Positions 2,209 through 21,336 of a DNA stretch of 46,088 bases are shown piece by piece. This stretch comes from Candidatus Woesearchaeota archaeon. Lineage in GTDB: Archaea > Nanobdellota > Nanobdellia > Woesearchaeales > GW2011-AR4. The stretch spans positions 1 through 46,088 of the forward strand of contig NYYQ01000007.1 of the NCBI GenBank assembly GCA_002686855.1, in the 5' to 3' direction. Below the pieces are notes generated by a model, which saw nothing but the letters and a program-made list of their open reading frames with translations, did not search any database and was not told the DNA's origin. The position numbers and the translations under genes are program-made. Within the stretch, counting starts at the first letter, position 1, and every line of letters starts with the position of its first letter.

Positions 2209-3492
2209 ATGATTATGTCAAAAAACGAAACAAATATCAACTTTTTATTTAAGAGCATATACTCCAAATTAATAGAGTTCTTCTTAGCCAACCCTGACAA
2301 TGAGTTTTATGTGAATGAGATACTGAAAGCTGTAAAAATTTCCCCAAAAGTCTTATGCGATGGCTTAAAAGAGCTTGAAAAAGCGGGAATTTTACTAAGC
2401 GAGAAAAGAGCAAACTCCATTTATTACAGGCTTAATAAGAAAAACGAGATTGTTGGCTCAATTAAAAAGATATTAAAGCCCGCAACATACAAAGATGCTG
2501 GTGTAGACATAGATGCTGCTAACCTCGCAGTAAAAAACATTAAAAAATATGTCAGAGAAACGTATAATCCAAATGTTCTATCAAAAGTCGGCTCTTTTGG
2601 CGGTTTATACCAGTTTGACAAAGAGAATGTTTTAGTTTCCTCAACAGATGGAGTTGGAACAAAACTAAAATTAGCGTTTAAAACAAATAAGCATGATACT
2701 ATTGGCCAGGATTTAGTTAATCATTGTGTTAATGATATATTGGTTACTGGAGCAAAACCCTTATTCTTTTTAGATTACATAGCTTGTGGAAAAGTTAATC
2801 CCAAAGTCATTGAGCAAATAGTGAAAGGCCTTTCCATTGCTTGTAAGGAAAATAATTGTGCATTAGTTGGAGGAGAAATTGCTGAAATGCCCGGATTGTA
2901 CAAAGAAAAGGAATATGACCTTGCAAGTTTTATTGTTGGAAAAGTAAATAAAAACAAAATGATTGACGGTTTAAAAATTAAAAAAGATGATGCGGTAATT
3001 GGATTATCTTCTAATGGGTTGCATACTAATGGTTACTCCTTAGTTTTCAAGGTACTGTTTGACCATGCAAAACTTAATTTAAACCAAAAACCAAAAGGAC
3101 TAAATTGCGCTTTAAAGGAAGAATTAATGAAAGTCCATTTAAGCTATTTTAAGCCTGTAAATGAATTACTAACTAAATTTGAGATTAAGGCAATGGCCCA
3201 CATTACAGGAGGAGGTTTAATTGAAAATATCCCAAGAGTACTTCCTGAAAACTGCTCAGTAGAGTTATATCAGGAAAAATGGAGAATACCCCCCATATTT
3301 GAATTAATCCAGAAACATGGAAACATCCCAAAAGATGAAATGTACAGGACATTTAATATGGGGATTGGCTTTGTATTGATAGTTAATAAAAAATATTCTG
3401 AAAAAATTCTAGCTCAATTAAAAAAATATGATTTTAAATCACAGGTTATTGGGAATGTTATTAGTGGCAATAAGAAAGTGGTGATAAGTTAG
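2209..3492 (+). CDS. purM: wHTH domain fused to phosphoribosylformylglycinamidine cyclo-ligase (AIR synthetase)
   Basis: The PurM core starts near aa 92 ([41 protein letters not shown]). The first ~90 aa are a winged helix ([37 protein letters not shown]). There is no internal start codon before the PurM core. Confidence 0.85.
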
Positions 3493-4787
3493 GTTATTTT
3501 TTCTTCTTTAATCTTATTTTTATCATTGCTTGTCTTAGAATAAAGTCTCATTGCGCAATACTCTGGACCGCACATGCTGCAGAAATCAGCATCAAGGTTT
3601 AAATCAGACCTTATTCTTCTTGCTTCTTCCGGGTCTAAAGCTAAACTAAACTGTTTTTCCCAGTCAAAATTAAATCTTGCTTTGCTTAATTCATCATCTC
3701 TGTCTCTGGCATTAGGAATTCCTTTTGCAATATCAGCAGAATGAGCAGCTATCTTATATGCAATAATTCCCTGTTTTACCATCTCAGGAGTTGGCAATCC
3801 TAAATGTTCTGCTGCAGTAACATAACAAAGAAAGTCAGCGCCATGCATTCCTGCTACTGCTGCGCCTATTGATGATGTTATATGGTCATAGCCTGGAGCA
3901 ATATCAGTAACCAAAGGACCTAAAACATAAAATGGAGCATTATGGCAATATTTTTTCTCTAACTCAACATTTAACTTTATTTCATTTAATGGAATATGAC
4001 CTGGGCCTTCTATCATAACTTGGCATTCTTTTTCCCATGCCTTTAATGTTAGCTGCCCAAGTATTTTCAATTCTGCAATCTGGGACTTATCTGTTGCATC
4101 ATGCAGGCAGCCAGGTCTTAGGCCATCTCCTAGAGAAAAAGCAACATCATATTTCCTAAAAATATCGCATATTTGCTCAAAATGAGTATACAATGGATTT
4201 TCTTTGTTATTGGCTTTCATCCATCTGATAAGTATAGCTCCTCCTCTGCTTACAACTCCTATAAGCCTTGTTTTTAATAAAGGCAAAGTTTTTTGCAAAA
4301 CACCAGCATGTATTGTCATGAAATCAACACCTTGCTTTGCCTGCAGTTCTATTATATCCAGCCAATCATCCGGTTTTAAATTTTCAATTGTATTGTTTTC
4401 CTCAACAACTTGGTAAGTGGGTACAATTCCAATAGGCATACTCGATTCATTAATTATTGCTTCCCTTATCTCATTTAGATTTCCTCCAGTACTTAGATCC
4501 ATAACAGTATCTACACCATATTTTTTGCATAACTTTACTTTTTCAAGCTCTTCTTTGATACATGCTCTTATTTTTGATGCTCCTACATTTGCATTTATCT
4601 TGGTTTTAAGACCTTTGCCTATTGCAACAGGCTTTAGATTCTTATGATTCAAATTAGCAGGTATTACAATAGAGCCTTGCGCTATTCTTTGCCTTAGAAG
4701 TTCAACATCAATATTCTCAACAGAAGAAACATATTTCATCTCTTTTGTTATTGTCCCTTGTCTTGCATAATGAAGTTGTGTTGCCAT
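3489..4787 (-). CDS. thiC: phosphomethylpyrimidine synthase
   Basis: [21 protein letters not shown]-terminus, C-terminal [11 protein letters not shown] Fe-S motif; start trimmed to ATG 4787. Confidence 0.9.
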
Positions 4788-4839
4788 AAGAAACAGGGTT
4801 TTCCCCTTATTTTTAAATTTGTTGTTTAATAAAAATAAC

Positions 4840-4863
4840 TTCAAACTCTTTCTTCCAGAACAT
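4840..4863 (-). pseudogene. short remnant of the purB 3' end (FWKKE...)
   Basis: rc reads TTCTGGAAGAAAGAGTTTGAAGTT versus the intact purB tail TTCTGGAAGAAGGAATTGGAAATA; 12-nt core ttcttccagaac (4850-4861) identical to 7019-7030 and 8732-8743. Confidence 0.4.
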
Positions 4864-4868
4864 AATAA

Positions 4869-5942
4869 TCAATCTAATAAACCTTTAGGCAGAAAATCAA
4901 ACTTATAGTCTTTTAATACCATCAAGGTCATATGTGATTCAATAATGTCATAAAATTTGTTTCTTATTTCTCTTAATAGAGTATTGAAATGTAAAGGGTC
5001 CTTGGCAAATATGTAAACTTCAAAGTCATATCTTCCTGTTGTTTCAAGAACAAAGGCAGTTTCTTCATGAAAATTAAAAAAGCTTTCAAACATTTTTCTT
5101 TTTTCAGCATCAACATGAGGCAAAAGCTGAAAGAATGATATATATCCATGGTAATGCAAATAAGATGCATTAATAATAGTTCTAAACGCCAATATAATTT
5201 TGTTTTCTGTTGATTTTTTTATTCTATGTTTTACAGTATCAACTGATAGTCGGGATTTTTTTGCAATGTCAACTATTTTAGCATTAGCATCATTTGATAA
5301 AATTTTTAATATTTTCAGAGCTTGTTCATCTAAATTAATATCTTGTTTACCAAGTCCAACCTTATTATTTCCAAAATTTTCTCCATATGCAAAATAGGTT
5401 TTTAAAGAATTTACATCAATTTTCAATTCTTTATAAAAGCTCTGAGGCAAAGTTTCATATTTGTTTAAGCTAATTATGGGCATAGTTTCATAATTCTTTA
5501 AATTACCTAAACATTTTGTTTTTATTTCTTTCATCAGCATATCAAAATGTTTTACATCTTTGGATAAAATATTAATTGCAAAATCCCACTCTCCGGAGCA
5601 TTGACCAAACCAAATTATAAATGGGTGATTAATAAAAAATTCAATTATTTTTTTCTCTTTTTCTTCATTTATATTTTCCAGCCTTAATAAGATAGTATAT
5701 GGTGTGAAGAAAATAAAAGGGTTAACTATAAGCAAATTTTTTCTAATTACATCTTTTTCTTTTAGTTTTTGAATCCTGTATCTTATTGCATCTTTGGATA
5801 ATCCAACAATTTTTGATAAATGAGTTGGAGAAATCCTTGAATTTTTAGCCAAAGCAGCTAAAATCTTCTTGTCTTTAACATCTATCTTTATATCCTTGCC
5901 ATAATCTAGTTCAAATATCACGCCTTTGTATTTTTCTTCCAT
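4869..5942 (-). CDS. tandem (duplicated) Lrp/AsnC-type transcriptional regulator
   Basis: Two AsnC-type HTH segments (KILAALAKNSRISPTHLSKIVGLSKDAIRYRIQKL and ALKILKILSNDANAKIVDIAKKSRLSVDTVKHRIKK), each followed by a RAM-like half. Confidence 0.6.
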   Translation of the reverse strand: MEEKYKGVIFELDYGKDIKIDVKDKKILAALAKNSRISPTHLSKIVGLSKDAIRYRIQKLKEKDVIRKNLLIVNPFIFFTPYTILLRLENINEEKEKKIIEFFINHPFIIWFGQCSGEWDFAINILSKDVKHFDMLMKEIKTKCLGNLKNYETMPIISLNKYETLPQSFYKELKIDVNSLKTYFAYGENFGNNKVGLGKQDINLDEQALKILKILSNDANAKIVDIAKKSRLSVDTVKHRIKKSTENKIILAFRTIINASYLHYHGYISFFQLLPHVDAEKRKMFESFFNFHEETAFVLETTGRYDFEVYIFAKDPLHFNTLLREIRNKFYDIIESHMTLMVLKDYKFDFLPKGLLD

Positions 5943-6041
5943 TTTTAATCAAAAACAGAGTTTAGTATATAAATTTTACTATTTTAGCGTAAAAATAGAG
6001 CATATTATTATATAAATAAGAGAGTATTATCTAGTGGTAAA

Positions 6042-6791
6042 ATGAAACTACCAGATTTACCTAATGTTCCAATAGATATGGATGAAGAGACTATTGCTTA
6101 TTTGAGTTCTCTTGAAGGTAGGTTAGACATTGAAGAAGGGTCGGGTACTATTGGGGTTGCAAGGGTTGAAGGGGACTATCTTACTGTTCTTGGAAAATAT
6201 ACTTCCAAAGGATTTCCTTCTTCTAAAACACACTTTTATGAATTGGTTAGAAACAGTAAAACTGGAGAAGAAACCATAGCTCATTTTCAAGAACCTCTAG
6301 ATGAAGTAACATCATCACTTTTTGGTTTGGCTTTAGCTGGAGCAACAGGTTTTGGTTTAAATCATATTTATCATTCATCAAGCGATATTTATGGATTCAT
6401 CTCAGCGCCTGTGGCTGGGGTAATTATTGGAGCAGTAGCTTTAATTCCGTTTGCTATAGGACTTTATTATGGACATTTGGCTCCTAGTGTTAAAAATCAG
6501 AGAAGGAAATTAGATAAGCATGGACAAAGCGTTAAACATTGTACTAACGCGAACCTTGCCGATATAAAAGAACAAGTTAAAGATATCGGTCTTTATCAAG
6601 GTGGTGTGACAGAGGTAGCAGATGCAGTGGGAAGACCATTAAAAATTGCCGAAACTGGTAATCCTGAAAAATTTGTTAGAGCACCTGATGAGTTCTGGTT
6701 AAGAGTTCAAATTCATTTAGCTGGTGGAAAACATGCCGCTAACTGTCTACCTGGGTCTAACGCTGGAACTCCTGTAACATACAGCGATTAA
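6042..6791 (+). CDS. hypothetical membrane protein (ORFan, G+C-richer than surroundings)
   Basis: Long ORF with two central hydrophobic segments (LFGLALAGATGFGL, FISAPVAGVIIGAVALIPFAIGLYYG); no motif recognised. Confidence 0.5.
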   Translation: MKLPDLPNVPIDMDEETIAYLSSLEGRLDIEEGSGTIGVARVEGDYLTVLGKYTSKGFPSSKTHFYELVRNSKTGEETIAHFQEPLDEVTSSLFGLALAGATGFGLNHIYHSSSDIYGFISAPVAGVIIGAVALIPFAIGLYYGHLAPSVKNQRRKLDKHGQSVKHCTNANLADIKEQVKDIGLYQGGVTEVADAVGRPLKIAETGNPEKFVRAPDEFWLRVQIHLAGGKHAANCLPGSNAGTPVTYSD

Positions 6792-7002
6792 AAAGTTTAG
6801 AGTAAAGACTAACTTTAGATTTCAAAGAGAATATGTTTATACAAAAAGATAAAGGTCTCACATGAATTTTTTTCTAAAGAGAAAAGGAATAAAGCAATCA
6901 AAAACAGAGTGTTCTTAATTCTGCAGACAGAGCCATAAAACTTTATTTTAAAGCATGGGAAACATCTGGTAGACAACCCTTTAATCCAGCAATCTATAAA
7001 AC

Positions 7003-7071
7003 CTAAACCCTTAACTCCTTCTTCCAGAACTTACAAATACTCTCAGTTTTCTTAGAAGCAATCACAATTTA
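7003..7071 (-). pseudogene. remnant of purB C-terminus (VIASKKTESICKFWKKELRV*)
   Basis: Aligns with intact PurB tail GIASKKAESACKFWKKELEI* (8716-8790); about 80 percent nt identity by eye; five of nine differing codons are synonymous; stop codon upstream. Confidence 0.65.
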
Positions 7072-7278
7072 TTTTTCGAACTTTTATTTATAGAAATTAA
7101 TCTATTCTTTACAGTATCTTTCATAAAATCTTAAGATTTCATCTGTTTTCTCCTGATTTAGTGAATAATGAATCTCTCCAGTTTTCTTTGCAGGTAAAAT
7201 CTAGTTGGGAGTCTTTGTGAAGGGATTTTCTAAAAAACCAAAAAGTATTTAAATAATAGTTACTATATACTAACTAAA

Positions 7279-7821
7279 ATGAGAAGCCAAGAAGATAAAG
7301 TGACAGGATTATTTTTTAATACACCTAAGCACTGGCACTTTGAAGAATTATTGAATAAATCTGGCTTAAGCAGGCCCAGGCTTGCAGTTTGGCTAAAGAA
7401 ATTCATTAAGCAAGGATTAATTAAAAGATTAAAGCCAAAAGGAAAGATGCCTTATTACATTGGAATATCTGAAAATCCTGAATTTCGGAACAGAAAAAGA
7501 TTATTCGCAATAAAAACACTGACCGAATCCGGCTTATTGGACCATTTATCCTCATTAAAGAAAGCAAAAGTTGTAATTATCTTTGGAAGCTTTTCCAGAG
7601 CAGATTGGTATGATGACAGCGATATTGATATTTTTATTTATGGTGATGAAAGCAATTTTGAATATTACAAATATAAGCAAAAATTAAAAAGAGAAATACA
7701 GATTCACAGTGCAAAAACAAAAAAAGATTTAAAAAAAATTGATAAAATGATGCCTTATATAATATCTGGAGATTTTATTAAAGGGTCTATTGAAGAATTA
7801 GGTGTTGAGGTAAATGTTTGA
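7279..7821 (+). CDS. wHTH fused to minimal nucleotidyltransferase (MNT-type)
   Basis: GSFSRADWYDDSDIDIFIYG matches the GSxxRG..SDxD pol-beta NTase motif; N-terminal wHTH (GLSRPRLAVWLKKFIKQGLIKRLKPKGKMPYY). Confidence 0.75.
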   Translation: MRSQEDKVTGLFFNTPKHWHFEELLNKSGLSRPRLAVWLKKFIKQGLIKRLKPKGKMPYYIGISENPEFRNRKRLFAIKTLTESGLLDHLSSLKKAKVVIIFGSFSRADWYDDSDIDIFIYGDESNFEYYKYKQKLKREIQIHSAKTKKDLKKIDKMMPYIISGDFIKGSIEELGVEVNV

Positions 7822-8284
7822 TTTTAAAAATTTGGATGAGGCTTACAACTCATGTGTTGCTGATGGCTTTATAAGAGAAAATCATGAGCATAATAAACAA
7901 AAGTTAAAAGATTTAATAAAAAATGCTGAAACAAACCTTAAAACAGCAAACATACTCATTAAAACATTAAAAAAAGATGATGATGAATGGCTCAATGTTT
8001 ACCTTAATCATTACGAAGCTTTAAGGTTTTATACAGAAGCATTTTTGCGTTATCATTCAGTAAAAATCAATAATCATCAATGCCTATTTGTATATTTATG
8101 TGCAAAATTCCCTGATTTAGAGCTTGACTGGAAATTTTTTGAAACCATAAGGAAGAAAAGAAATAATATTAATTATTATGGTGGCCATGTCAAGTTTGAT
8201 GAATGGAAATCAATAGATTTGCAGATAAAGTTATACATTTCTGCATTAAAGAAAGAGATTGAAACTAAGATTGGAATTTTCTAA
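7814..8284 (+). CDS. HEPN-domain protein (partner of the MNT)
   Basis: 8-nt overlap with the NTase gene; IRKKRNNINYYG resembles the R..RN...Y HEPN motif; helical composition. Confidence 0.6.
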   Translation: MFDFKNLDEAYNSCVADGFIRENHEHNKQKLKDLIKNAETNLKTANILIKTLKKDDDEWLNVYLNHYEALRFYTEAFLRYHSVKINNHQCLFVYLCAKFPDLELDWKFFETIRKKRNNINYYGGHVKFDEWKSIDLQIKLYISALKKEIETKIGIF

Positions 8285-8372
8285 TATAATTTTATCTCCT
8301 TTTAAGTGAGATGGTAACCCTTTAAGAATGAAATATTTAAATACTAGTTGATCAATACTATACTTGATTATT

Positions 8373-8702
8373 ATGGAAACAAAATCACTTTTTATTGAAT
8401 TCATGGGAGACTCGGCTATGATTAGAACATTAGACTACCTTTTAACAGAAAGGGAACTAGATTTTTCAATAACAGATATGGCAGAAAATGCAGGCATAGG
8501 AAGAGCTACCTTATATAGAATTTGGGACAATTTGATTGACAATGAAATCATAGCTCATACCAGAGATATAGGAAAAGCAAAATTATACAAATTAAACAAG
8601 GATAACATCAAAATTAAAAAACTTATGGAAATAGATGATGCATTAATTTTAGAAGAATTGAAGAAACGCTCTGAAAGTCAAAGGGCAAAAGTGATGGCAT
8701 AA
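8373..8702 (+). CDS. small wHTH DNA-binding protein
   Basis: ENAGIGRATLYRIWDNLIDNEIIAHTRDIGKAKLYKLNKDN: helix-turn-helix plus wing; ATG at 8373 preferred to TTG at 8364. Confidence 0.6.
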   Translation: METKSLFIEFMGDSAMIRTLDYLLTERELDFSITDMAENAGIGRATLYRIWDNLIDNEIIAHTRDIGKAKLYKLNKDNIKIKKLMEIDDALILEELKKRSESQRAKVMA

Positions 8703-8715
8703 TTATGTGAAAAAT

Positions 8716-10101
8716 CTATATTTCCAATTCCTTCTTCCAGAACTTACAAGCGCTTTCAGCTTTTTTAGAAGCAATACCCACATATTTCTCAGGATTACTT
8801 ATTATCTCTAATTGCTTTTTATTGAATTTTTTTAAATATGGTTGTAATGATTTTTCCTTTTTTATTATCTCTGTTAATGATTTTTTTGATGATTGAGCTT
8901 TTAATGTCAATTGCCTTACAATTTCATGAGCATCAGGATGCCCTTTTGCAGCTAACAGTATATACAACGGCTCAGCTACAATCAAGCCTTTATTCATATC
9001 AAAATTCTTCCTTAAATTTTCCTTATCAACAACTAAGTTTTTCATTGTTCTATTAAGTCTTGAAACAGATAGATAGAATGCAGTTAAAATTTCAGGAACA
9101 AATCTTAATGAAGCAGAATTAGTTAAATCTCTTTGATGCTCTGATATCTGGTCCATATACAAAGTAACAATGCGCGGCATAAAAGCTTTCCACATGCTCT
9201 TAACATTCTCAAAGTTTATGGGATTCCTCTTCTGGGGCATTGTTGAGCTTCCAACTTGTTTTGCTCCAAAAACTTCTGCAACCTCTAAAATTTCAGACCT
9301 TTGCAAATGCCTCATATCATCAGCTAAATTAGCAATAACTCCAAAACCTTCTACAATAGAATGGATATAGCTGGACATAAACTCTGCTTCTGGGATTTGT
9401 GTGGAAATAGGAGAAGCTTTTAGATTAAGCTCTGAAAGAACATCTCTCTCAAACTCAACAGGATTATTAAAGAACAGAGAGGAAGCATTATAGCTTCCCA
9501 CTGCTCCTGCTATCTTACCTCTTAAATTATTCCCTGTTTTCTTTATCTGAATTATTGACCTTCCAAACCTGGAAACATACTGTGCAAGAGCAAAACCAAA
9601 TGTTATTGGGACAGCATGCTGGCCATGTGTTCTTCCAACCTGCAAGGTATTTTTCTCCTTTAATGCCAACATTATCAATGTTTTTTCAAACTCAATTAAT
9701 TTTGGAATTAAAACATTCTCAGTAAATTTCTTATACCTTGCAGCATCTGCAGTGGCTATTATATCGTGGGATGTTGTGGTGAAATGCACAAAAGGCTTTG
9801 CTTCATCACTTACTTTCCTTTGTATGCAATTAACTAATGCCCTTATATTGTGCTTTAGTTTATCTTCTTCTTGATAAACTTCTTCAGCAGTTATTTTTTT
9901 AGTAGCTTTTTCAACCTCATCCGCAATCTTTTTGCTGCAAACGCCTTTTTTAGCCAAAGTTTTAGTTAAAGCTGCCTCAACCTTAGCCATATACTTAATC
10001 ATTGCATTCTCACTTAGATAAGGCTGCAATTTATGAAAAATGCGCTCATTCCTGCCATAATACCTAAAATCTAATGCGCTTATATTATCAAAAATATTCA
10101 T
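8716..10101 (-). CDS. purB: adenylosuccinate lyase
   Basis: SSTMPQKRNPINFENV signature, lyase-1 family layout, 461 aa. Confidence 0.9.
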   Translation of the reverse strand: MNIFDNISALDFRYYGRNERIFHKLQPYLSENAMIKYMAKVEAALTKTLAKKGVCSKKIADEVEKATKKITAEEVYQEEDKLKHNIRALVNCIQRKVSDEAKPFVHFTTTSHDIIATADAARYKKFTENVLIPKLIEFEKTLIMLALKEKNTLQVGRTHGQHAVPITFGFALAQYVSRFGRSIIQIKKTGNNLRGKIAGAVGSYNASSLFFNNPVEFERDVLSELNLKASPISTQIPEAEFMSSYIHSIVEGFGVIANLADDMRHLQRSEILEVAEVFGAKQVGSSTMPQKRNPINFENVKSMWKAFMPRIVTLYMDQISEHQRDLTNSASLRFVPEILTAFYLSVSRLNRTMKNLVVDKENLRKNFDMNKGLIVAEPLYILLAAKGHPDAHEIVRQLTLKAQSSKKSLTEIIKKEKSLQPYLKKFNKKQLEIISNPEKYVGIASKKAESACKFWKKELEI

Positions 10102-10190
10102 TTTTGGCTCAAAAGAAACATCTTTATTATCTGAATTAATTAAATTTTGAATTTCTTTTAATAAAGAACTTTCCTTGTTTAAGCTTATGA

Positions 10191-10373
10191 TTATCTTATT
10201 TTTTTCCTTGTTTTCCTTATAAGATTATTTTTCTTAAATAATTGGATTGTATTATGGACTTTAGCAGGAGAAATATCTAAATTGCCAGCAATATCCCTTA
10301 TATGCAAACTTTCCTTTGACAATAATTTCAATATTTCGATGTTTTTCTTGGTAAATATCTCTATTAACTCCAT
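10191..10373 (-). CDS. truncated wHTH ORF; probably the N-terminal part of a wHTH-PurB fusion
   Basis: HTH SLHIRDIAGNLDISPAKVHNTIQLFKKNNLI. The ORF stops just after an A7 run (10199-10205), before the wing. The -1 frame is open into the purB ATG. TATA TTTATAAATA lies about 21 nt upstream of the ATG, consistent with a leaderless mRNA. Confidence 0.6.
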   Translation of the reverse strand: MELIEIFTKKNIEILKLLSKESLHIRDIAGNLDISPAKVHNTIQLFKKNNLIRKTRKKIR

Positions 10374-10451
10374 ACTATATAGAAAACGTTCATTATTTAT
10401 AAACTTTTCTATACTTTAAACTATATATTGTTTGTTTTTAGAGAACACTAT

Positions 10452-11189
10452 TCAGACCTTAACCCTCATACAATCTTTAGCCAGAACAATCTTTCCATCA
10501 AATTCTTTGCTGCATTGTTTTTTTATATCAACCTTGTCGCATTCAGGATAGAAGTGTGTTAAAACAAGTTTCTTTACATTTGCCTTAGTCGCTATCTTGC
10601 CGCATAAAGACGGTATAAGATGGCCTTTTACCTTTTTATTATCAGGGTAGGAGCATTCCAGAACCAATAAATCAGCATTTTTCGATAATTGTATGATATC
10701 ATTAGAATAATCAGTATCTCCAGAATAAACAATTGATTTACCATCATACTCAATCCTGTATGAAACACCAATGATAGAATGCTTTACTTTTTTTGTTTTT
10801 ATTAAAATTTTATCAATTTTTGATATTGAATTATCATTCATTTCCCCAACATTAACATCGTAATTTAATTTTCCAATAGTAGCTTTTCTTATAAAATTAA
10901 AATATTTCTTAATACCTTTTGGCCCGTAAATATTTAATGGGCCTTTATATTTATTACAATGGTCTATGATAAGTATTCCTAGTAAATCATTTATATGATC
11001 TGGATGAAGATGAGTGTAAAATATATGATTAATATCCATAATCTTTGATTTTGTTTTTAAAATTTGTCTAATAATTCCAGGACCAGAATCAAAAAGTATT
11101 TTTTTATTGCCTGTTTCAACTAAATAACCAGACATATTCCTGTTTAATCTTGGCACTGCTGTCCCAGAGCCTAAAACAGTTAGTTTCAT
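10452..11189 (-). CDS. metallo-beta-lactamase fold hydrolase (RNase Z/ElaC-like)
   Basis: HTHLHPDHINDL (HxHxDH) motif, N-terminal LTVLGSGTAVP. Confidence 0.7.
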   Translation of the reverse strand: MKLTVLGSGTAVPRLNRNMSGYLVETGNKKILFDSGPGIIRQILKTKSKIMDINHIFYTHLHPDHINDLLGILIIDHCNKYKGPLNIYGPKGIKKYFNFIRKATIGKLNYDVNVGEMNDNSISKIDKILIKTKKVKHSIIGVSYRIEYDGKSIVYSGDTDYSNDIIQLSKNADLLVLECSYPDNKKVKGHLIPSLCGKIATKANVKKLVLTHFYPECDKVDIKKQCSKEFDGKIVLAKDCMRVKV

Positions 11190-11935
11190 TTTATTATTTT
11201 TAATAATTGATTATGGATCTTCCCATTACTGGCAACAAACTTCCTGTTGTCAGGATTCCATCTCTCCCCATCATGGCCAGTTACTTTTCCGCCAGCTTCT
11301 TCAACAATGAGCGCGCCAGCAGCTACATCCCAAGGACATGTATACGGCACTATATATGCATCTACAATACCGTTTGCAACCATTGTATAGCCACTAACAG
11401 CGCATCCTAAAAGCCGAATATCATATACCTTGCCTAATAATTTATCAAAAATTATCTTCCCATAAGGAGTATGGCGATAAACCAAATCAGTCAGCGCAAA
11501 CGATCTTTTTACATCTTTTTTGTTTGAAACCTTTAATCTTTTTCCATTCAACAAAGCGCCTTTTCCTTTCTCAGCAACATAGAATTCATTGAAGCAAGGC
11601 AAGTCAATGACTCCCAATTTCATCTCTCCTTTATATGCCAAACCAATAGAAACACCAAAATGGGGAAAATTATTGATGTAATTATGTGTCCCATCCAAAG
11701 GGTCTATATACCATATATAATCAGATTTCTTGCCTAAATTTCCGCTTTCCTCAGAAATAATATTATGCTTTGGAAACTTTTTCTTTATTAAAGAAATAAT
11801 GACTTTTTCGCTCTCTAAATCAACATTTGTAAAATAGCTTGTTTTGTTCTTTTCCCTGACAAACTTTATTTTGCCGTAATGTTTCATCAGAACTTTTCCT
11901 GCATCTTTTGCGGCTTTAATCATTAAAGATTTCAT
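11186..11935 (-). CDS. suhB: inositol monophosphatase / fructose-1,6-bisphosphatase family protein
   Basis: WYIDPLDGTHNY and WDVAAGALIVEEAGG motifs; 4-nt overlap with downstream gene. Confidence 0.8.
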   Translation of the reverse strand: MKSLMIKAAKDAGKVLMKHYGKIKFVREKNKTSYFTNVDLESEKVIISLIKKKFPKHNIISEESGNLGKKSDYIWYIDPLDGTHNYINNFPHFGVSIGLAYKGEMKLGVIDLPCFNEFYVAEKGKGALLNGKRLKVSNKKDVKRSFALTDLVYRHTPYGKIIFDKLLGKVYDIRLLGCAVSGYTMVANGIVDAYIVPYTCPWDVAAGALIVEEAGGKVTGHDGERWNPDNRKFVASNGKIHNQLLKIIK

Positions 11936-11987: not shown

Positions 11988-12317
11988 TTAATTTTTTATT
12001 CTTTTCAAAATTTCTTTAATTTTTTCAATTGTTTTTTGTTGATTATGTTTTTTAGACATTTCTATAAATTTAATAAGCAATTCTTCCAGCTTATTCTTAT
12101 TAAAAAGATTTAATTTATGCCCATCAAGAATGAAATAAAACCTAAAGCTTTTATATTTTAATTCCCTGATGCTGATATTGCCAACATGACCTAAAACTTT
12201 CCCTTTATTAGGATTTTCTTTTAATTCTTCAATCAAATTATAGACTTTCAGAGAATCTTTTTTAAAAGTTTTAAATATTTCATATCTCAAATCATTGAGA
12301 ATTTCTATTTTTATCAT
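11988..12317 (-). CDS. RelE/ParE-superfamily-like toxin (tentative)
   Basis: About 100 aa, basic, IRELKYKSFRFYF core, ATGA overlap with the upstream small ORF. Confidence 0.45.
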   Translation of the reverse strand: MIKIEILNDLRYEIFKTFKKDSLKVYNLIEELKENPNKGKVLGHVGNISIRELKYKSFRFYFILDGHKLNLFNKNKLEELLIKFIEMSKKHNQQKTIEKIKEILKRIKN

Positions 12318-12526
12318 TGGTTCATAGATTTAATTTTAAGTTTAGTCCATTCTTTAGCTTCTTCTAGTGTAGAATATCCAGACTCATCAACAAATTCACT
12401 TATTTTTTCCTGCATTTTTATTTGATTGTACATTCTCTTAACTATATCATCATAATTTTCTGATTTTTTGCCAAAATCTTGCAATAAAGCTCTAGTTTCC
12501 TTCGATATTGAAATTGTTGTGTTCAT
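12314..12526 (-). CDS. putative antitoxin
   Basis: 70 aa, acidic C-terminus, overlaps the toxin start by 4 nt (ATGA). Confidence 0.4.
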   Translation of the reverse strand: MNTTISISKETRALLQDFGKKSENYDDIVKRMYNQIKMQEKISEFVDESGYSTLEEAKEWTKLKIKSMNQ

Positions 12527-14469: not shown

Positions 14470-14925
14470 CTACAATATCTTATATCTTTGATAATTTTCA
14501 TTCATTAATAAGTCTTTTGCAATATTAATTGCTCTGCCTTCCTTATCAATCTCAGAATCAAAATACATTGTCCATATGATTCCCTTTTCCAATTTTTTAA
14601 TATTTTTAAAATTCAATCTTTCTTTCAACATGTTCAACAACTCATTATCCTTTTCCAAATTTTCTATTAAAATATTTATTTTATTTCCTTGTTCATTGTT
14701 CTCTAATAAAAATGAAAATTTATTTTTATTGGCATTAACCAGGACATCCACTTTACCTATTTTCTTCTCAAAGCTTTTTTTATCCCCTGAAAATCCAAAT
14801 TTATAGTAATCTTGCTTTTCCAGATTCTTTAGATGATGATAGCCCATCCTATGCAGTGTATGAAATGCTGTTATAGCTACATTATCCGGAACTTTCAAAC
14901 TGACAAATAATTCTGTTATTGGCAT
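14470..14925 (-). CDS. purS: double-length PurS-like protein
   Basis: Position in the purL-purQ cluster; VSLKVPDNVAITAFHTLHRMGY and C-terminal LLMNENYQRYKIL resemble PurS; about twice normal PurS length. Confidence 0.5.
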   Translation of the reverse strand: MPITELFVSLKVPDNVAITAFHTLHRMGYHHLKNLEKQDYYKFGFSGDKKSFEKKIGKVDVLVNANKNKFSFLLENNEQGNKINILIENLEKDNELLNMLKERLNFKNIKKLEKGIIWTMYFDSEIDKEGRAINIAKDLLMNENYQRYKIL

Positions 14926-14940
14926 TTTGATTTATCTTTT

Positions 14941-15134
14941 AATTATTTTTTTGGCATTTTTTATTTATTGATTTATCATTAAAATTTAGATTATTATCCA
15001 TTGTTTTTATTATTGGAAAATATTTATTGTTGTTTTCTTTTTTATTGATTATTTTTTATTTAATGATCTATTATCATAATTTTTAACTGGATTATTTTTA
15101 TTGATAAATTTTATTATTGGAACTTTTTTATTGC
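14941..15134. repeat. AT-rich degenerate TTATTGAT/TTATTGG repeat tract
   Basis: Many copies of ttattgat / ttattattgg; exact 15-mer ttattgataaatttt (15098-15112) also at 29511-29525. Confidence 0.6.
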
Positions 15135-15908
15135 CTATTTATTTTTAATAATATATCTTTTCATAGACTCAAAAATCCTGATATTATTTGTTTTTTGATC
15201 TGTTTTTTTGCTTCCAGGAATTTGCCTTTTCCAGATAGCACGTTCAGGATGTGGCATCATAGCCATAATATTCCCTTCTTTACTGCAAATAGCAGCTATA
15301 TTCAGCATAGAGCCATTTGGGTTTGTTGGAAACTTATCCTCAATTTTCCCTTCTTCATTGCAATACTGAAAAATAATTTGTTTATTTTTTATTAATTGCT
15401 TAACTAAAGCTTTATCCTTTGTTACAAATCTTCCCTCTCCATGCGCAATTGGCAATTTTAAAACTTCATTTTTATCTAAATCAGTAAAAGCAGCTCTTTT
15501 TTTATTCTGAATACTTTTAATATTGACCCAAACATTATAATAACCGGAAACAAAAGGATTTTTATTAGGAGCCAAAGCAAACTCAACCTTATCCTTTAAG
15601 CCAGGAACCATCCCCGTTTCCACTAAAACTTGGGCGCCATTGCATATTCCCAAAACTGGCTTTCCTTTTCTTGATTCTTCTTTAATTATATTCATGACAG
15701 GATCTTTTGCTGCTATAACTCCTGCCCTTATCCTGTCCTCATAAGCCCATCCACCCGGAATTACATAGCCATCAAAATCCGATAAATATTCTTTAGTATT
15801 CCACCTAAGGATTTTGCCATCCATTCCAGCAGCTTTTACAGCTTCTAAAGTTTCCACTTCGCAATTATTCCCGGGAAAGTATATGACTGCTATATTTGGT
15901 TTTGTCAT
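15135..15908 (-). CDS. purQ: FGAM synthase glutaminase subunit
   Basis: VLGICNGAQVL catalytic Cys, AHGEGRF, MPHPER motifs. Confidence 0.9.
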   Translation of the reverse strand: MTKPNIAVIYFPGNNCEVETLEAVKAAGMDGKILRWNTKEYLSDFDGYVIPGGWAYEDRIRAGVIAAKDPVMNIIKEESRKGKPVLGICNGAQVLVETGMVPGLKDKVEFALAPNKNPFVSGYYNVWVNIKSIQNKKRAAFTDLDKNEVLKLPIAHGEGRFVTKDKALVKQLIKNKQIIFQYCNEEGKIEDKFPTNPNGSMLNIAAICSKEGNIMAMMPHPERAIWKRQIPGSKKTDQKTNNIRIFESMKRYIIKNK

Positions 15909-15909
15909 T

Positions 15910-16737
15910 TTATACAGCCTCTAGCACTGGAATTACATGTGTAAGATCAGCAGAGTCTTCTTTTTTATCAATAAAAAACACTTTTCCTGTAATCTTTTCC
16001 TCTTCTAATTTCTTTTTTAAGTATACTTCTAATGCTTCATTGTAATTAAACGCTATTCCTATACCTCCTGCTTTTGCAACTCCAAGTATTCCTCCACTAT
16101 CCCCCATTGTGTCTCCAATATGGATCAATTGATTAGATTTTAATTCTGGAAAATGTTTTTTAGCATATGCTTGAAGTAAACTTGCTTTAGCTTCTTCATC
16201 AGGAATTCCCAAATCAATTACGCCTGTTGCTTGTATTTCATCATAAGATCTATCATCCACTGCTTCTGAATCAAAAAAATATGATTTGGCTTTTTTTTCT
16301 AACTCTTCCTCACTTATTGTTGCGTTAGGTTCACCATGATTTCCAAATCTTAATATATTTCCAATGAACCCACTTATTTTATTATTTCCTACTTGTTCTC
16401 TGATAGCATAAAAGGTAACAGAATAGCCAGTGCTATTGATTATTAATGGGAACTTATTGTCGTATAAGAAATCTATTAGCTTATTAAATCCTCTTAAATA
16501 TTTCATATGAGTTTTTGTGTACTCTATTGCTTGACGCAAAGTTAATCCTCTTGTTAAAGGACCAGAAACCTGGAAAGCTTTTTCCATAGTCGCAGTTCCG
16601 CTCGTTTGTTTTTCAAAAATAGCTTTAGCTTCCTTAAATGCATCTTCACCTTTATATATTCTAATCATATCACTCATTGTATGTTGATGCACTAATGTTC
16701 CATTCAAATCTGCTGATATTAATCTTGTTTCATACAT
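15910..16737 (-). CDS. HAD-superfamily-like protein embedded in the purL-purQ operon
   Basis: Motif I-like ADLNGTL (second Asp is Asn), INSTG, GDTMGD; abuts the purL stop and purQ start with gaps of 0-1 nt. Confidence 0.55.
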   Translation of the reverse strand: MYETRLISADLNGTLVHQHTMSDMIRIYKGEDAFKEAKAIFEKQTSGTATMEKAFQVSGPLTRGLTLRQAIEYTKTHMKYLRGFNKLIDFLYDNKFPLIINSTGYSVTFYAIREQVGNNKISGFIGNILRFGNHGEPNATISEEELEKKAKSYFFDSEAVDDRSYDEIQATGVIDLGIPDEEAKASLLQAYAKKHFPELKSNQLIHIGDTMGDSGGILGVAKAGGIGIAFNYNEALEVYLKKKLEEEKITGKVFFIDKKEDSADLTHVIPVLEAV

Positions 16738-19077
16738 TTAACTCAAAACCTCCGCAAAACCACTTGTCCAAGGCCTTTTTATTTCATTTATTTTCAAATC
16801 AATTATTTTATCATCATTTTTTTTAATTGTTAATGTTTTTTTATTGGTTGTTTTTCCCAATTGAATCATTTCAATATTATGTTTTTTGAAAATATTCTTT
16901 ACTTTATTCACATTCTTATTTTCAACTTCAAAAACAAAACCAGAGCTTTCTGAAAACAAAGCCTTGTCATTCCTTAAATTGCTAAAACCAATATCAATCT
17001 CAACTCCAATAGTGCCATCAGCATTTCCCCCTAAAATCATCTCAGAAACTGTTGCAACTAAACCACCATCGCTTATATCATGGCAGCTTAATAACAAGCC
17101 TTTATCAACAGAATCAATAACAGCATAAATCATATTTTTTTCTTTTTGAAAATCAATTTTTGGGACATTTTTTCCAACCTGTTTATTAATATCATAATAA
17201 ACACTTCCACCTAATTCGTCTTTTCTTTCTCCAACCAAGAATAAAGCGCTGTTTTCTTTTTTTAGCTTCATTGTTATAGCTTTGGAATAATCATCCATAA
17301 CTCCAACACAAGCTATTATCGGGCTTGGATCAATTGCCTTTCCCTTATTACTCTCATTATAAAAACTAACATTTCCTGAGACAATAGGAACTGGATTTTT
17401 TGTTTTGTAATAGTTAATTTTGCTGGCAGCATCTTTGATTCCCCTAACTGCTTCTTTAAAGTCATAGAACTCCTCTGGTTTTTCAGGATTTCCAAAGCAT
17501 AAGCAATCAGTTAAAGCAGAAGGTATAGCGCCAATAGCTGCTATATTACGCATAGATTCTGCAACAGCATTTACAGCTCCTAAGTAAGGGTCAATCCTCC
17601 CATATTTTGGATTGTTATCAACAGCTAAAGCAATTCCATACTTGCCTTTTGCTTTAATTAATCCAGCATCTGCTTGTCCAGGCTCTATAATGCCAGTGCC
17701 CATAACATTTTTATCATAATGATTAAAGCACTTTGCTTTTGAAGCAACAGCAGGGTTTGAAAGAACTTTCAACAAAACATCATTGTAATCTTTTTTTTCT
17801 TTTATAATTGGCTCCTTAAAATTCCTTTTTGGTTTTTTAGCTGCCCTGTCATAACTTATTCCAGAAGTTACAGCTTTAATTGGAGCATTACAAACAACCT
17901 GGCCTTTGTGCTTAACAACATAATTTTTTTCATCTGTCACTTGCCCAATTACAACGGCTCTTGCATTCTTTGCAATATTAGATAATTCAAAATCCTTATT
18001 GTATATTTTCAATATAGTTGGAGTAAATTCCTTTGGACTTATCCAGGTAAATCTTTCTTGTGTCTCAGAACATGCTATGATATATGACGGTAAATCTTTC
18101 ATAGAAACATGCACATTATCCAAATCAAGCTCGCAACCATAATCTGCCGCACTACACAACTCAGAACTAGCGCACATTATGCCACCAGCTCCCATATCCT
18201 TAAATCCTAACCCCACATTTTGTTTTTTAGCCTCATTAAAAACCTCATAAGTTGCTCTAATTAAAACATTTTTTAAAAAAGGATCTGGCACTTGCACTGC
18301 ACCTCTGTTGCTTTCTTCTGCTTCTTCATCTAAAATTAAGGATGCGAAAGCAGCCCCTCCAAAACCAGAATTATCTGTAGGTTTTCCGACAATTATGATG
18401 TCATAGCCATCAGCATTCTTTGGAGCATAACTATGGATAATATCTTTCTCTTTCAAAATACCTAAACAAACAACATTTACCAGACAATTATCATCAAAGC
18501 TTTCATTAAAATAAACATCTCCAGCTAGATTTGGTATACCGACAGCATTTCCATAGCCTGCTATGCCATCAATAACCTCATTTGCAATATACTTTACCTT
18601 GTTTTTATTCTTTCCATCAGGATTTCCAAATCTTAATGGGTCTGCAGTACCAATAATCTTCGCTCCCATGCACAGAACATCTCTAAGAATTCCTCCAATG
18701 CCGGTAGCAGCCCCTTCATACGGCACAACCTGGCTAGGGTGGTTATGGCTTTCGTGGCTCATAACTATACCGTACTTTTCTCCATCTATTGTTCCTAACT
18801 CAACAACACCAGAATCTTCTATTGGCCCTAAAATAACATTGGGTGCTTTAGTTGGCAAAGTTTTAAGCACTTTTCTAGAGCTTTTATATGAACTATGCTC
18901 TGACCATTGTATGTTAAAAATATTCAGCTCTGTTAAGGTTGGATTTCTGCCGATTAACTTTACTATCTTTTTTGCCTCATTTGTTTTCAGAGAAATAGCA
19001 TTTTTCTTCAGAAAATCCTGCAGCATTCTATTTGACATGCCTTTTACATCAACCAGCTCTGTATCAACCATCCCCAT
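16738..19077 (-). CDS. purL: FGAM synthase II (small PurL)
   Basis: QWSEHSSYKSS, ESHNHPS, 779 aa AIR-synthase-related duplicated architecture. Confidence 0.9.
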   Translation of the reverse strand: MGMVDTELVDVKGMSNRMLQDFLKKNAISLKTNEAKKIVKLIGRNPTLTELNIFNIQWSEHSSYKSSRKVLKTLPTKAPNVILGPIEDSGVVELGTIDGEKYGIVMSHESHNHPSQVVPYEGAATGIGGILRDVLCMGAKIIGTADPLRFGNPDGKNKNKVKYIANEVIDGIAGYGNAVGIPNLAGDVYFNESFDDNCLVNVVCLGILKEKDIIHSYAPKNADGYDIIIVGKPTDNSGFGGAAFASLILDEEAEESNRGAVQVPDPFLKNVLIRATYEVFNEAKKQNVGLGFKDMGAGGIMCASSELCSAADYGCELDLDNVHVSMKDLPSYIIACSETQERFTWISPKEFTPTILKIYNKDFELSNIAKNARAVVIGQVTDEKNYVVKHKGQVVCNAPIKAVTSGISYDRAAKKPKRNFKEPIIKEKKDYNDVLLKVLSNPAVASKAKCFNHYDKNVMGTGIIEPGQADAGLIKAKGKYGIALAVDNNPKYGRIDPYLGAVNAVAESMRNIAAIGAIPSALTDCLCFGNPEKPEEFYDFKEAVRGIKDAASKINYYKTKNPVPIVSGNVSFYNESNKGKAIDPSPIIACVGVMDDYSKAITMKLKKENSALFLVGERKDELGGSVYYDINKQVGKNVPKIDFQKEKNMIYAVIDSVDKGLLLSCHDISDGGLVATVSEMILGGNADGTIGVEIDIGFSNLRNDKALFSESSGFVFEVENKNVNKVKNIFKKHNIEMIQLGKTTNKKTLTIKKNDDKIIDLKINEIKRPWTSGFAEVLS

Positions 19078-19131
19078 TTTCCTACACTATAATTGAATTT
19101 GAGGGTAGTTTATATATATTTTGGTAAGAAT

Positions 19132-19518
19132 TTATCCCAAAAAAGAACTCAAATAATAAGCACCCAAAGCAGCAACCACTCCCAAAATAACACCTTTAAC
19201 AATAACTTCTTTCTTTTCCTTTATGTAAATTGCAGCTACAAGCATAAAAACAAAAAGCAAAACTGCGAATAAAGTAAATAAATTGTCTTTATAGAATAAG
19301 CTTGTAAATGCAACTAAAGGGACTGCTCGTGCAATATGATGGTTTGCATTCTTAATTATAAAGGATAGAATTATTAAAATTGAAATTGCTATTAATAATT
19401 GATAAACAAAAGGCATGTATTCTCCAATAATAGCCCTTATTATAACAATAAAATAGAAAAGAATAGAGCCAAAAGCTAAAGAATCTCTTGCTATCTCCTT
19501 TTTCCAGTTCTTGTTCAT
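19132..19518 (-). CDS. hypothetical membrane protein (about 4 TM)
   Basis: Hydrophobic segments throughout; no motif recognised. Confidence 0.5.
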   Translation of the reverse strand: MNKNWKKEIARDSLAFGSILFYFIVIIRAIIGEYMPFVYQLLIAISILIILSFIIKNANHHIARAVPLVAFTSLFYKDNLFTLFAVLLFVFMLVAAIYIKEKKEVIVKGVILGVVAALGAYYLSSFLG

Positions 19519-19635
19519 ATTTTTTTCTTATTTAGCTACTTATTTTAACTTTTTGGTTTTAAATTAATTACTACTTAAAAAATGTAACAAGTAGCAAGGT
19601 TTATAAGTTTAATATATATACCTAATATGATTTAA

Positions 19636-21336
19636 ATGTGTAGTATTTGCGGGGTGTATATTTTACATAAAGAAGGGTTGCCAGATATAGCCGCTGCTCT
19701 TGAGACTTTAGGTCTTGAAAGAGAAGTAGCAGAAAAAATTGTAGAGAATGGTTCAGTAGCAGCAAGTGTTTTAGATTTTCATCTTTGTAATTCAACAAAT
19801 AGGGGTTATGATAGTTCTGGTATTGTTACTTTTGATGGACAAAGTAATCAAACTCATAGAGATTTGGGTTCTGCTGAAGAAGTATATCACCATGATGATC
19901 CTGAGAAACATAGAAAAACATTAGAACAACTTGTTGGAAATATAGCCATAGGCCAGAATAGATACAGGACTTCTGGAATTATAGACACAGATAGTGTACA
20001 ACCTTTTGAACCAATAGATGGAATAACTATAGCGCATAATGGGAATATTGTGAATCAAATTGATTTAAGAAGATTTTTTAGCGACCCATTTGTACAAAAA
20101 AAAGTCCCTTTACTTTCAACATCTGATAGCGAATTAATCAGAAATAGCTTGGTAGCATCTTATGGTTCAAAAATTCCAATTGATGAACTTGTAAGAAAGG
20201 CAATGATCGAAGATAGAGAATTTATAGGAGCATATTCAGTTGTCGCACTTATAAGAGACCAATTAATAGCTTTTAGAGATCCAAGGGCCTATTGGCCTTT
20301 GCATATGGCAAGATTAGGAAATTTAATTATTTTTAATTCTGAAGTTACTCCAATTCAAGAATTTATTAGAGCAACTGATTATAAGTTACGTAGATCTGAT
20401 TTTTTAAGATCTGTTGAAAGAGGAGATATAGAAACTGTTTCTAACCGCACTATTACAACTTATACTAGAGCCCTGATGGAAGATGGAGTTGAAGTTAAGA
20501 AAAGGAGATGTACTATGGACTATATTTATCTTTTAATGCATAAAAACGAGCTTGTTATGCATTTTAGGAAAAGGTCTGGAGAGATTTTATGGGAACATTA
20601 TGGTTTAAGTGGAGATAAAGAAGAATTTGTTGTTTCTCCTGTACCTCAATCAGGGACTTTTTATGCACATGGCATAAGAGATGCTTCTGGTCTTCATTAT
20701 AAAAGAATAATAGAAAAAAGATCTAAAACCCATAAAGCATTTCTTGCAGCAACTCCTGAAGAAAGATTAGCAATGAAAGAAAAAAAATATAGGTTAAGGG
20801 AAACTTACAAGGGAATGAAAGTCATGCTTACTGATGATAGTGTTGTAAGGAATGATACATTATATTTTTTAATTAAGAAAATGAGGTTAAAAGAAGTTGA
20901 AGAATTACACCTCAGAATCGGATCTCCACCCATAAAGACTCCATGTTATAATGGTATGAGTACTCCAACTCGAAATGAATTACTTGCTCACCATCTAAAT
21001 AGGGGCCAGATTGAAATGTATTTTGAATCTATATTTTATGGGGCAGATTATGATAGAGACACTATAATTTCAAAAATAAAAAAAGGGAAAACTGTTGAAA
21101 ATATTGTCCAAGATAGTGTTATTGATAATCAAAACTATCTTAAAGACCCTAAAATGAGAGAAGTAGAAAAAGGAAAATTTAGCTTAAAATATAATACATT
21201 AAAGATGCTGAAAAGTGCGTTTAAAAGAGCAGACTTAAACCCAGATACAAGATGCTATGCTTGTATGATGCCAGGATGGAGCGGATATCCTAATAAATTT
21301 AAGCCTTATTTATCTGGGTTGAGTAAGGCTGCATAG
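19636..21336 (+). CDS. purF: divergent amidophosphoribosyltransferase
   Basis: N-terminal MC (Ntn Cys), NRYRTSG..QPF, IAHNGNIVN, SDSE, PRT loop VMLTDDSVVRNDT, LRIGSPPIKTPCYNGM, C-terminal CYACMMPGWSGYP; has insertions and is G+C-richer. Confidence 0.7.
   Translation: MCSICGVYILHKEGLPDIAAALETLGLEREVAEKIVENGSVAASVLDFHLCNSTNRGYDSSGIVTFDGQSNQTHRDLGSAEEVYHHDDPEKHRKTLEQLVGNIAIGQNRYRTSGIIDTDSVQPFEPIDGITIAHNGNIVNQIDLRRFFSDPFVQKKVPLLSTSDSELIRNSLVASYGSKIPIDELVRKAMIEDREFIGAYSVVALIRDQLIAFRDPRAYWPLHMARLGNLIIFNSEVTPIQEFIRATDYKLRRSDFLRSVERGDIETVSNRTITTYTRALMEDGVEVKKRRCTMDYIYLLMHKNELVMHFRKRSGEILWEHYGLSGDKEEFVVSPVPQSGTFYAHGIRDASGLHYKRIIEKRSKTHKAFLAATPEERLAMKEKKYRLRETYKGMKVMLTDDSVVRNDTLYFLIKKMRLKEVEELHLRIGSPPIKTPCYNGMSTPTRNELLAHHLNRGQIEMYFESIFYGADYDRDTIISKIKKGKTVENIVQDSVIDNQNYLKDPKMREVEKGKFSLKYNTLKMLKSAFKRADLNPDTRCYACMMPGWSGYPNKFKPYLSGLSKAA

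Follow-up and report, generated by a model that had tools for sequence, protein, structure and literature searches.

A decayed array of integration scars without a recombinase gene at the 3′ end of purB in a marine woesearchaeon

The purB-thiC interval

The stretch of DNA analyzed here (the window) is a 46,088-nucleotide (nt) contig of a marine Candidatus Woesearchaeota archaeon (DPANN), and our subject is the interval between its genes purB, coding for adenylosuccinate lyase, and thiC, in which the 3′ end of purB occurs three times. Read along the minus strand, the order is a metallo-β-lactamase (MBL)-fold hydrolase gene, a purB gene preceded by a winged helix-turn-helix (wHTH) region, segment 1, an orphan purB end (remnant A), segment 2, a second junction piece (remnant B), and thiC (Table 1). 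The purB product of the window is 100% identical to one NCBI Woesearchaeota protein. An earlier note on this DNA had taken the layout for tandem integrations into the 3′ end of purB.

The comparison set comprised 129 other, related purB loci, namely, 88 loci plus 41 extra purB ends from metagenome contigs, the latter found with a degenerate purB-tail pattern. Gene order 5′ of purB is conserved among the relatives, and 3′ of purB the gene content is different in every relative examined. In the nearest relatives, kae1 lies 0.3 to 2.5 kb downstream of purB, with differing open reading frames (ORFs) in between, and in four loci (L028, L038, L050, and L068) thiC comes 1.2 to 2.6 kb after purB. One relative, L115, is a 2993-nt metagenome contig, and the same contig type occurs in three assemblies.

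Look-ups within the same population covered about 18 to 19 contigs, and independent metagenome samples, three at the least, show the architecture with 100% identity. In two samples, contigs made with different assemblers span the whole of 3400-11300 and differ from the window there only by a 1-nt indel (10220); shorter contigs from further samples (ERR599167, ERR599172, JGI 3300020361, and CEPS01187545) match their parts equally well. Because independent assemblies match, the array is not an assembly chimera. All of the contigs compared are occupied, and none among them represents a same-population strain lacking a segment.

Table 1. Features of the purB-thiC interval and its flanks, in order of descending window position
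Feature	Coordinates	Strand	Basis or remark
MBL-fold hydrolase	10452-11189	-	Upstream flank of purB; the L115-like side of the incongruence
wHTH::purB (adenylosuccinate lyase)	8716-10373	-	Pfam Lyase_1, ASL_C, ADSL_C
Present purB tail, ending IASKKAESACKFWKKELEI and stop codon	8716-8790	-	Contains core copy 8732-8743
Segment 1	7063-8715		wHTH-MNT, 156-aa partner, 112-aa HTH protein
112-aa HTH protein	8364-8702	+	Homologues adjoin purB or thiC in L017, L028
Conserved 156-aa MNT partner	7814-8284	+	No Pfam match; HEPN not verified
wHTH-MNT nucleotidyltransferase	7279-7821	+	Pfam PF18765, PF01909, E 1e-9
Remnant A, orphan purB 3′ end, IASKKTESICKFWKKELRV and stop codon	7003-7062	-	Core 7019-7030
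Segment 2, inserted element without integrase	4862-7002		Tandem Lrp/AsnC, 249-aa two-TM protein
249-aa two-TM protein, higher G+C	6042-6791	+	No Pfam match
Tandem Lrp/AsnC regulator	4869-5942	-	Pfam; stop codon 7 nt from core
Remnant B, second junction of segment 2	4821-4861	-	Core 4850-4861
thiC	3489-4787	-	Pfam ThiC_Rad_SAM, E 2e-190; chromosomal gene after the array
aa, amino acids; HTH, helix-turn-helix; MNT, minimal nucleotidyltransferase; TM, transmembrane.

Three purB 3′ ends and their shared core

The three ends hold in common an exact 12-mer, TTCTTCCAGAAC, which an exact search located at the three core positions of Table 1 and at no other site in the window, just as the earlier note had described. 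When one mismatch is allowed, the window has six such sites, versus 0.34 expected from shuffles. Extended to 18 nt by AACTCY, the core matches at 17/18 positions between the ends of segment 2, and these 12 to 18 bp, (AACTCY)TTCTTCCAGAAC, encode the conserved motif FWKKE. The sequence to be used for seeking further copies of the site elsewhere in the metagenome-assembled genome is AACTCYTTCTTCCAGAAC.

Remnant A lies between stop codons, translates to the end of a purB product, and forms with the present purB tail the strongest direct repeat of the region (75% over 80 nt, E 2e-13; 87% over an inner 47 nt, E 8e-8). By blastn it also matches purB at the 3′ end in 24 other Woesearchaeota (best match, 81.5% over 65 nt, E 1e-11). 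The remnant and the present tail have 21 nt exactly in common and differ at 13 of 60 nt. The claim that five of the nine differing codons are synonymous was reproduced: five codons differ by synonymous changes only and four nonsynonymously, a pattern with p = 1.4e-4 under random substitution (100,000 simulations), which indicates that the two tails diverged as coding sequence.

The remnants had also been described as diverged copies of the present tail, and this did not hold. The match of remnant A to the window's own tail (51/69) is not better than that to the foreign tail of L018 (54/69), and the remnant fits L115 at 56/58. Its core and the 32 nt proximal to it are identical to L115 (44/44). 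Only four differences from L115 occur, all of them in the 16 distal nt (7003-7018), a clustering with a Fisher p of 0.0037, and all four are synonymous, so that the residues ELRV are kept and another stop codon is used. Beyond 7062, the near-identity to L115 drops sharply, leaving a weaker similarity (9/15) up to 7077. We read remnant A as a hybrid whose distal 16 nt are a replacement end derived from an element. The remnants thus belong to an L115-type purB allele and not to the present purB. An attempt to decide which tail is native from the consensus of the lineage was uninformative.

An empty site for segment 2

Set against the window's own purB only, remnant B amounts to a match of 25 nt at 84% (E 0.015), equal to a chance match, and is marginal by itself. 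The alignment to L115 settles the matter. Remnant B consists of native downstream flank (4821-4840), an old stop codon, TCA (4841-4843), the sequence AACTCT (4844-4849), and the core. Relative to L115, it has a 7-nt deletion between the old stop codon and AACTCT; apart from that deletion, 40/41 nt match (E 1e-8 with the flank), with AACTCT plus core at 18/18 and the old stop plus 20 nt of noncoding downstream flank at 22/23. These two matches establish that remnant B is genuine and, together with remnant A, that the three ends are real purB 3′ ends, as had been claimed. In the earlier translation FWKKEFEV, the last residues, FEV, are not homologous to LEI, since they result from reading through the 7-nt deletion into the old stop and flank. 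For the same reason, a 24/25 match of remnant B to the KKEF-type tail of L035, once counted as support, was withdrawn: the apparent EFEV is an artifact of the deletion, as evidenced by the L115 alignment.

In L115, the proximal part of remnant A, the core, and the distal tail of remnant B with its stop and flank follow one another without interruption. Because L115 is contiguous where the window is split, it represents the empty site for segment 2, of the kind that the earlier note had proposed to seek among relatives; left junction, core, and right junction all come from this single contig type. The homology of remnant B to L115 stops exactly at the core edge, 4861, with only 7/20 nt matching beyond. 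That edge, together with the restriction of the differences of remnant A to synonymous changes distal to the core, points to a site-specific geometry. Direct repeats bound both ends of segment 2, and the distal part of remnant A supplies ELRV and a stop by synonymous sequence, which restores frame and termination. We regard this geometry as the signature of conservative site-specific recombination in a short core by an element that brings its own gene end. The anatomy that had been proposed for segment 2, integration into the 3′ end of a gene with a replacement end, is thereby borne out by junctions A and B and by L115.

Domain searches agreed with the earlier observation that neither segment carries a visible recombinase. 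Neither window ORFs of at least 90 amino acids (aa) nor the stop-free stretches of 6780-7290 contain a recombinase domain, and Phage_integrase, resolvase, and transposase are lacking in the segments, the noncoding stretches, and these ORFs. A split integrase of the SSV type is not present at the junctions, whose neighbors are the Lrp gene and noncoding DNA without a Pfam match. Segment 2 has kept attL/attR-type junctions, in the form of remnants A and B, and has no recombinase, as in a cis-mobilizable element (CIME); a related element that bears an integrase was not found. The exact 21-nt core common to the window tail and remnant A has no match in viral or metagenome contigs, and viral contigs contain no purB relatives, degenerate purB-tail pattern, L115-type tail, or 249-aa protein. 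Segment 2 has no inverted repeats at its ends (the best inverted arm match is at chance level, p 0.94 to 0.99). Near the core, its two arms carry CAATCTA..AAACCT as a direct repeat that matches at 13/15 positions (4870-4884 and 6990-7004; shuffle p ~0.01), and we conjecture that the two copies could be arm-type binding sites.

An incongruent purB allele

The present purB does not share the affinity of its flanks. Its nearest relative is L111 (79.8% nt and 87% aa identity), and to L115 it is 76% (nt) and 77.7% (aa) identical. The adjoining MBL gene, by contrast, is 87.5% (nt) and 81.4% (aa) identical to that of L115, with the next best relative at 72% nt and with an identity that is patchy along the gene (77 to 100%). 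Among the other relatives, 19 have both genes, and in all 19 the conservation of MBL is 13 to 30 points below that of purB. Because MBL is here closer to L115 than purB is, the reverse of the situation in those 19 relatives, the body of purB is incongruent with its flank. The proximal part of the present tail, KKAESACKFWKK, is held in common with L111, with 3/45 nt differences; distal to the core, 9/18 nt differ (Fisher p 3e-4). Most probably, segment 1 came in together with a purB allele of foreign origin, which took the place of the native gene body.

Several minor observations concern purB itself. Compared with every other same-population assembly, the window is one A short at 10220 (CCTTA[A]TAAG). 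This deletion splits wHTH::purB into 8716-10101 (461 aa) and 10191-10373 (60 aa); in all other same-population assemblies it is a single gene of 552 aa, the length of most purB homologues. Probably, the indel reflects an error in sequencing or assembly, or else a private mutation. The N-terminal 60-aa ORF has winged-helix Pfam matches. Another purine gene, purM (2209-3492), has an N-terminal extension of ~90 aa without a Pfam match, which is wHTH-like by sequence reading only; if true, the purB and purM extensions would be enzyme-regulator fusions in this lineage.

The ~80 nt directly before wHTH::purB, within 10374-10460, are conserved at nucleotide level in ~80 relatives, more so than the coding sequence, with identity as high as 92% over 66 nt. 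It contains an invariant AAAGTTTATAAATA, resembling a B recognition element and TATA box, and a conserved GTTC..AAACAAACAATATAT block. In the window, an inverted repeat, TATAGAAAA..TTTTCTATA, can be seen by eye around the TATA box and may be a putative operator for the enzyme's own fused wHTH. Rfam has no match in the window.

Contig breaks recur at the locus too. Three independent same-population assemblies start or end contigs at 9191-9201, inside purB, and all three L115-type contigs (L115/L152) end ~130 nt downstream of purB. Repeated breaks of this sort suggest that at this locus the assembly graphs branch at the strain level.

How the array may have formed

The locus is a real array of integration scars, decayed and CIME-like, and thus a known sort of scar. 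For its origin, we propose a history in two steps, to which we give an even chance of being correct as a whole. Its first step, integration of segment 2 at the core, is well supported. The second, displacement of the allele together with the arrival of segment 1, is less certain; we infer it from the incongruence between MBL and purB, the L111-like proximal tail, and the sharp drop in identity at 7062.

According to this history, the last codons of purB in this lineage would be an attachment site for mobile DNA, centered on the core. Into an ancestor with an L115-type purB tail, a small element that is the present segment 2 would have entered through a conservative site-specific crossover within the core. 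The crossover would have duplicated the core, leaving the old distal tail, stop, and downstream flank behind as scar B, and would have given purB an element-supplied distal end encoding the same residues (ELRV and stop), which is now the left portion of remnant A. A since-lost part of the element may have encoded the recombinase, or the enzyme may have acted in trans. Later, an L111-like purB allele would have come in with the MNT toxin-antitoxin-like pair and the HTH gene, displacing the native body and leaving only the last 60 nt of native purB as orphan A. The outcome would be a small integrase-less island of regulators plus an addiction-type module at purB, fixed in the sampled population.

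A number of observations weigh against this history. The empty site comes from one 3-kb contig type, in three assemblies that all end ~130 nt after purB. Together, remnants A and B match L115 at 84/85 nt, closer than the 87.5% of the MBL gene; vertical descent alone does not predict such closeness, and the tail block may have been exchanged between lineages recently. The break of the present tail from L111 at the core fits a crossover there in the present gene too, as in tandem integration. The 46-kb window has no integrase, transposase, or Cas1; phage and plasmid collections hold no free or otherwise integrated copies of segments 1 and 2; and viral contigs, phages, and plasmids hold no attP-like purB tail. 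Finally, a duplicated purB tail occurs in 0 of the 129 other purB loci.

The most serious rival, possible but in our estimate rather unlikely, is tandem accretion, where the purB body is native and two elements integrated successively at the same core, each with a replacement end, so that remnant A would be a hybrid junction between two elements that have both lost their integrases. The exact 12-mer in all three copies and the 21 nt common to the window tail and remnant A speak for it, as do the uneven differences of the present tail from L111 (9/18 distal against 3/45 proximal), which are as for a foreign end, and the 9/15 similarity past 7062; moreover, reused att sites with tandem arrays are well known (PMC6563490, PMC5704250). 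Nevertheless, the model needs a 32/32-nt match between the second element's arm and L115 purB by coincidence of origin and an additional event for the incongruence between MBL and purB, and it leaves unexplained that the proximal part of remnant A and the distal part of remnant B rebuild the contiguous site of L115. Of the tandem-integration model in the earlier note, then, the integration of segment 2 stands, and a second clean integration behind a native purB is the less likely part.

Co-occurring Woesearchaeota might instead have undergone repeated homologous or homology-facilitated illegitimate recombination with no dedicated recombinase, the FWKKE-coding stretch acting as anchor or microhomology. 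Mosaicism between lineages is clear (MBL versus purB, and the patchy 77 to 100% of MBL), the region after purB varies greatly among all relatives, none of which has a tail duplicate, and no integrase was found in the window, all of which this explanation accommodates. It is nonetheless improbable, for the junctions of segment 2 coincide exactly with either edge of a single short core and a synonymous replacement end was supplied; such reciprocal geometry is expected of conservative site-specific recombination and not of illegitimate joins. Insertion of segment 2 by a transposon or casposon with a target-site duplication of ~28 nt is very unlikely. Remnants A and B do overlap by ~28 nt of L115 sequence, and casposons, which insert in tandem, have the 3′ ends of protein genes as targets (PMC6563490). 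However, terminal inverted repeats, Cas1, and transposase are all absent, and the two copies carry four clustered synonymous differences, though fresh copies start identical. An assembly chimera or chance similarity in AT-rich DNA, suggested by the metagenome-assembled source and by the marginal match of remnant B to the window's own tail, is effectively refuted by the identical architecture of full-span contigs from two samples and different assemblers and by the matches of remnant A to foreign purB tails (E 1e-11) and of remnant B with its flank to L115 (E 1e-8).

A more far-reaching idea, which we offer as a long shot alongside the two-step history, is that the FWKKE-coding core is the docking site of a trans-acting recombination system in marine Woesearchaeota that shuttles integrase-free cassettes. 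Such cassettes, very small, might carry regulators or toxin-antitoxin pairs between lineages, and purB alleles might even be moved entire. If true, purB would be a cassette hotspot that is integron-like in its logic, in reduced-genome DPANN archaea, and the differing gene content after purB in every relative would be the footprint of that system.

Relation to known integrated elements

The closest archaeal precedent comes from the integrated mobile genetic elements of Thaumarchaeota, of which 14 of 68 reside in 3′-distal parts of protein genes, including a purine gene, that for phosphoribosylamine-glycine ligase (PMC6563490). There, new stop codons are supplied, empty sites verify the elements, and arrays form at reused sites (PMC6563490). 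The woesearchaeal locus resembles these elements in its insertion into the last codons of a housekeeping gene, short att duplication, element-supplied stop and gene end, empty site in a relative, and reuse of the site. It differs in its host (a DPANN woesearchaeon), its target (purB), the lack of an integrase gene, and the small size of the element, which has two genes. Another difference is that one displaced end here derives from another allele than the gene now in place.

With CIMEs, the locus has in common att-flanked elements that lack integration and transfer genes and are stacked at the 3′ end of a gene with copies of that end. The classic example of CIMEs and accretion is the fda 3′ end of Streptococcus thermophilus, with ICESt1 and ICESt3. 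In bacteria, CIMEs retain attL and attR after the loss of the integrase, and accretion takes place beside the 3′ end of a gene (PMC5704250). The differences are the archaeal domain, the absence of anything pointing to conjugation or of a known functional mobilizing relative, and a second step that is possibly allele replacement instead of accretion.

The Dehalococcoides islands at ssrA are a third case; reportedly, they stand in tandem, are bounded by short direct repeats of the ssrA 3′ end, and have site-specific integrases. The target there is an RNA gene, unlike purB. In Dehalococcoides, horizontally acquired islands are integrated at the single-copy transfer-messenger RNA gene ssrA, and the likeness to our locus lies in acquired islands at one single-copy gene (PMC3146451).

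What is new here is the host group, the target gene purB, the proposed allele-replacement twist, and the absence of a recombinase gene; the locus reveals no new mechanism. One literature search on Woesearchaeota and integrases yielded nothing that bears on the question by title or abstract. Little has been documented of the mobile elements in DPANN archaea, and the locus provides a concrete case at the sequence level. It exemplifies a protein-gene attachment site in Woesearchaeota, small islands of regulators and addiction modules that are built and then lose their recombinase, and the probable replacement, in the same place, of a housekeeping purine gene by a foreign allele. Also, orphan gene ends with coding-type conservation are a searchable signature of decayed elements where searches for integrases fail.

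Cargo of the two segments

Segment 1 had been said to carry a wHTH-MNT gene and a HEPN gene. Pfam bears out the wHTH-MNT nucleotidyltransferase, which also has a weak match to MntA, below the cutoff. The HEPN assignment of its 156-aa partner found no support in profile, sequence, or fold searches: Pfam, NCBIfam, PHROGs, and a PDB sequence search gave no HEPN match, and an AlphaFold2 model of low confidence (predicted local distance difference test score, 61) had no Foldseek match at an E value of ≤0.001. In favor of a HEPN domain with the Rx4-6H motif in the partner there remain the conserved pairing and an RNNINY stretch, read by eye from the sequence. As in MNT-HEPN systems (type VII, MntA/HepT-like), the nucleotidyltransferase gene overlaps the gene for a small helical partner, and the pair travels as a unit between contexts; in contrast to them, the partner here lacks a detectable HEPN signature and the MNT has an N-terminal wHTH. 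The pair, with partners of 153 to 158 aa, recurs in other Woesearchaeota in unrelated neighborhoods that contain neither purB tails nor integrases.

For segment 2, Pfam confirmed a tandem Lrp regulator, and the view that the accompanying membrane protein is an ORFan gave way, because the 249-aa protein has 84 homologous cluster representatives with a common C-terminal domain. Homologues of this tandem Lrp protein (53 to 71% identity) occur in other, unrelated neighborhoods, again without purB tails or integrases. An exact 15-mer direct repeat, AATCAAAAACAGAGT, at 5947-5961 and 6896-6910 brackets the 249-aa gene, whose G+C content is 0.34 to 0.40, versus 0.25 to 0.30 in its surroundings. By a rough estimate, the chance expectation of any exact 15-mer pair in 4.2 kb is ~0.08. 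The repeat may mark a nested insertion within segment 2.

Other features of the window and its relatives

At the purB boundary of another relative, L026, a 54-aa fragment (11383-11544) that matches thiC residues 30 to 83 (56% identity, E 6e-13) starts directly at the purB stop codon and is another gene remnant at the same boundary. L006 and L005, contigs of one relative population, are identical until ~3.1 kb downstream of purB and then differ: L006 has, at 14800-20900, genes for a tyrosine integrase (14924-16105) and a Fic protein together with numerous small ORFs. Next to the break is a G+C-rich stretch that resembles a tRNA gene by eye only. This comparison shows that integrase-bearing elements circulate in these archaea; the L006 element was dropped as a model for the purB array, since it adjoins the apparent tRNA gene and not purB.

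Two ORFs in tandem within 397-867 (42 and 52 aa) contain CxxC motifs in pairs (CISCGF...CRDCE) and resemble paralogous zinc-ribbon proteins; next to these is a third ORF, small and acidic (54 aa, 703-867), and Pfam has no match for any of the three. A FolC-like Mur ligase (21916-23108) is divided into an M-domain ORF and a C-domain ORF, and a Cbf5/TruB pseudouridine synthase (41326-42376) has its DKCLD part and its TruB-PUA part in separate ORFs. Additional frameshifts in the record could account for both cases, or the genes could be genuinely split. Between the inositol monophosphatase gene and purC stands a gene pair (11988-12526) coding for 70 aa (DUF7557) and then 109 aa, with a 4-nt overlap, and in L005 a ParE-type pair lies just upstream of purC. 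Both pairs look like toxin-antitoxin modules scattered in the purine gene cluster.

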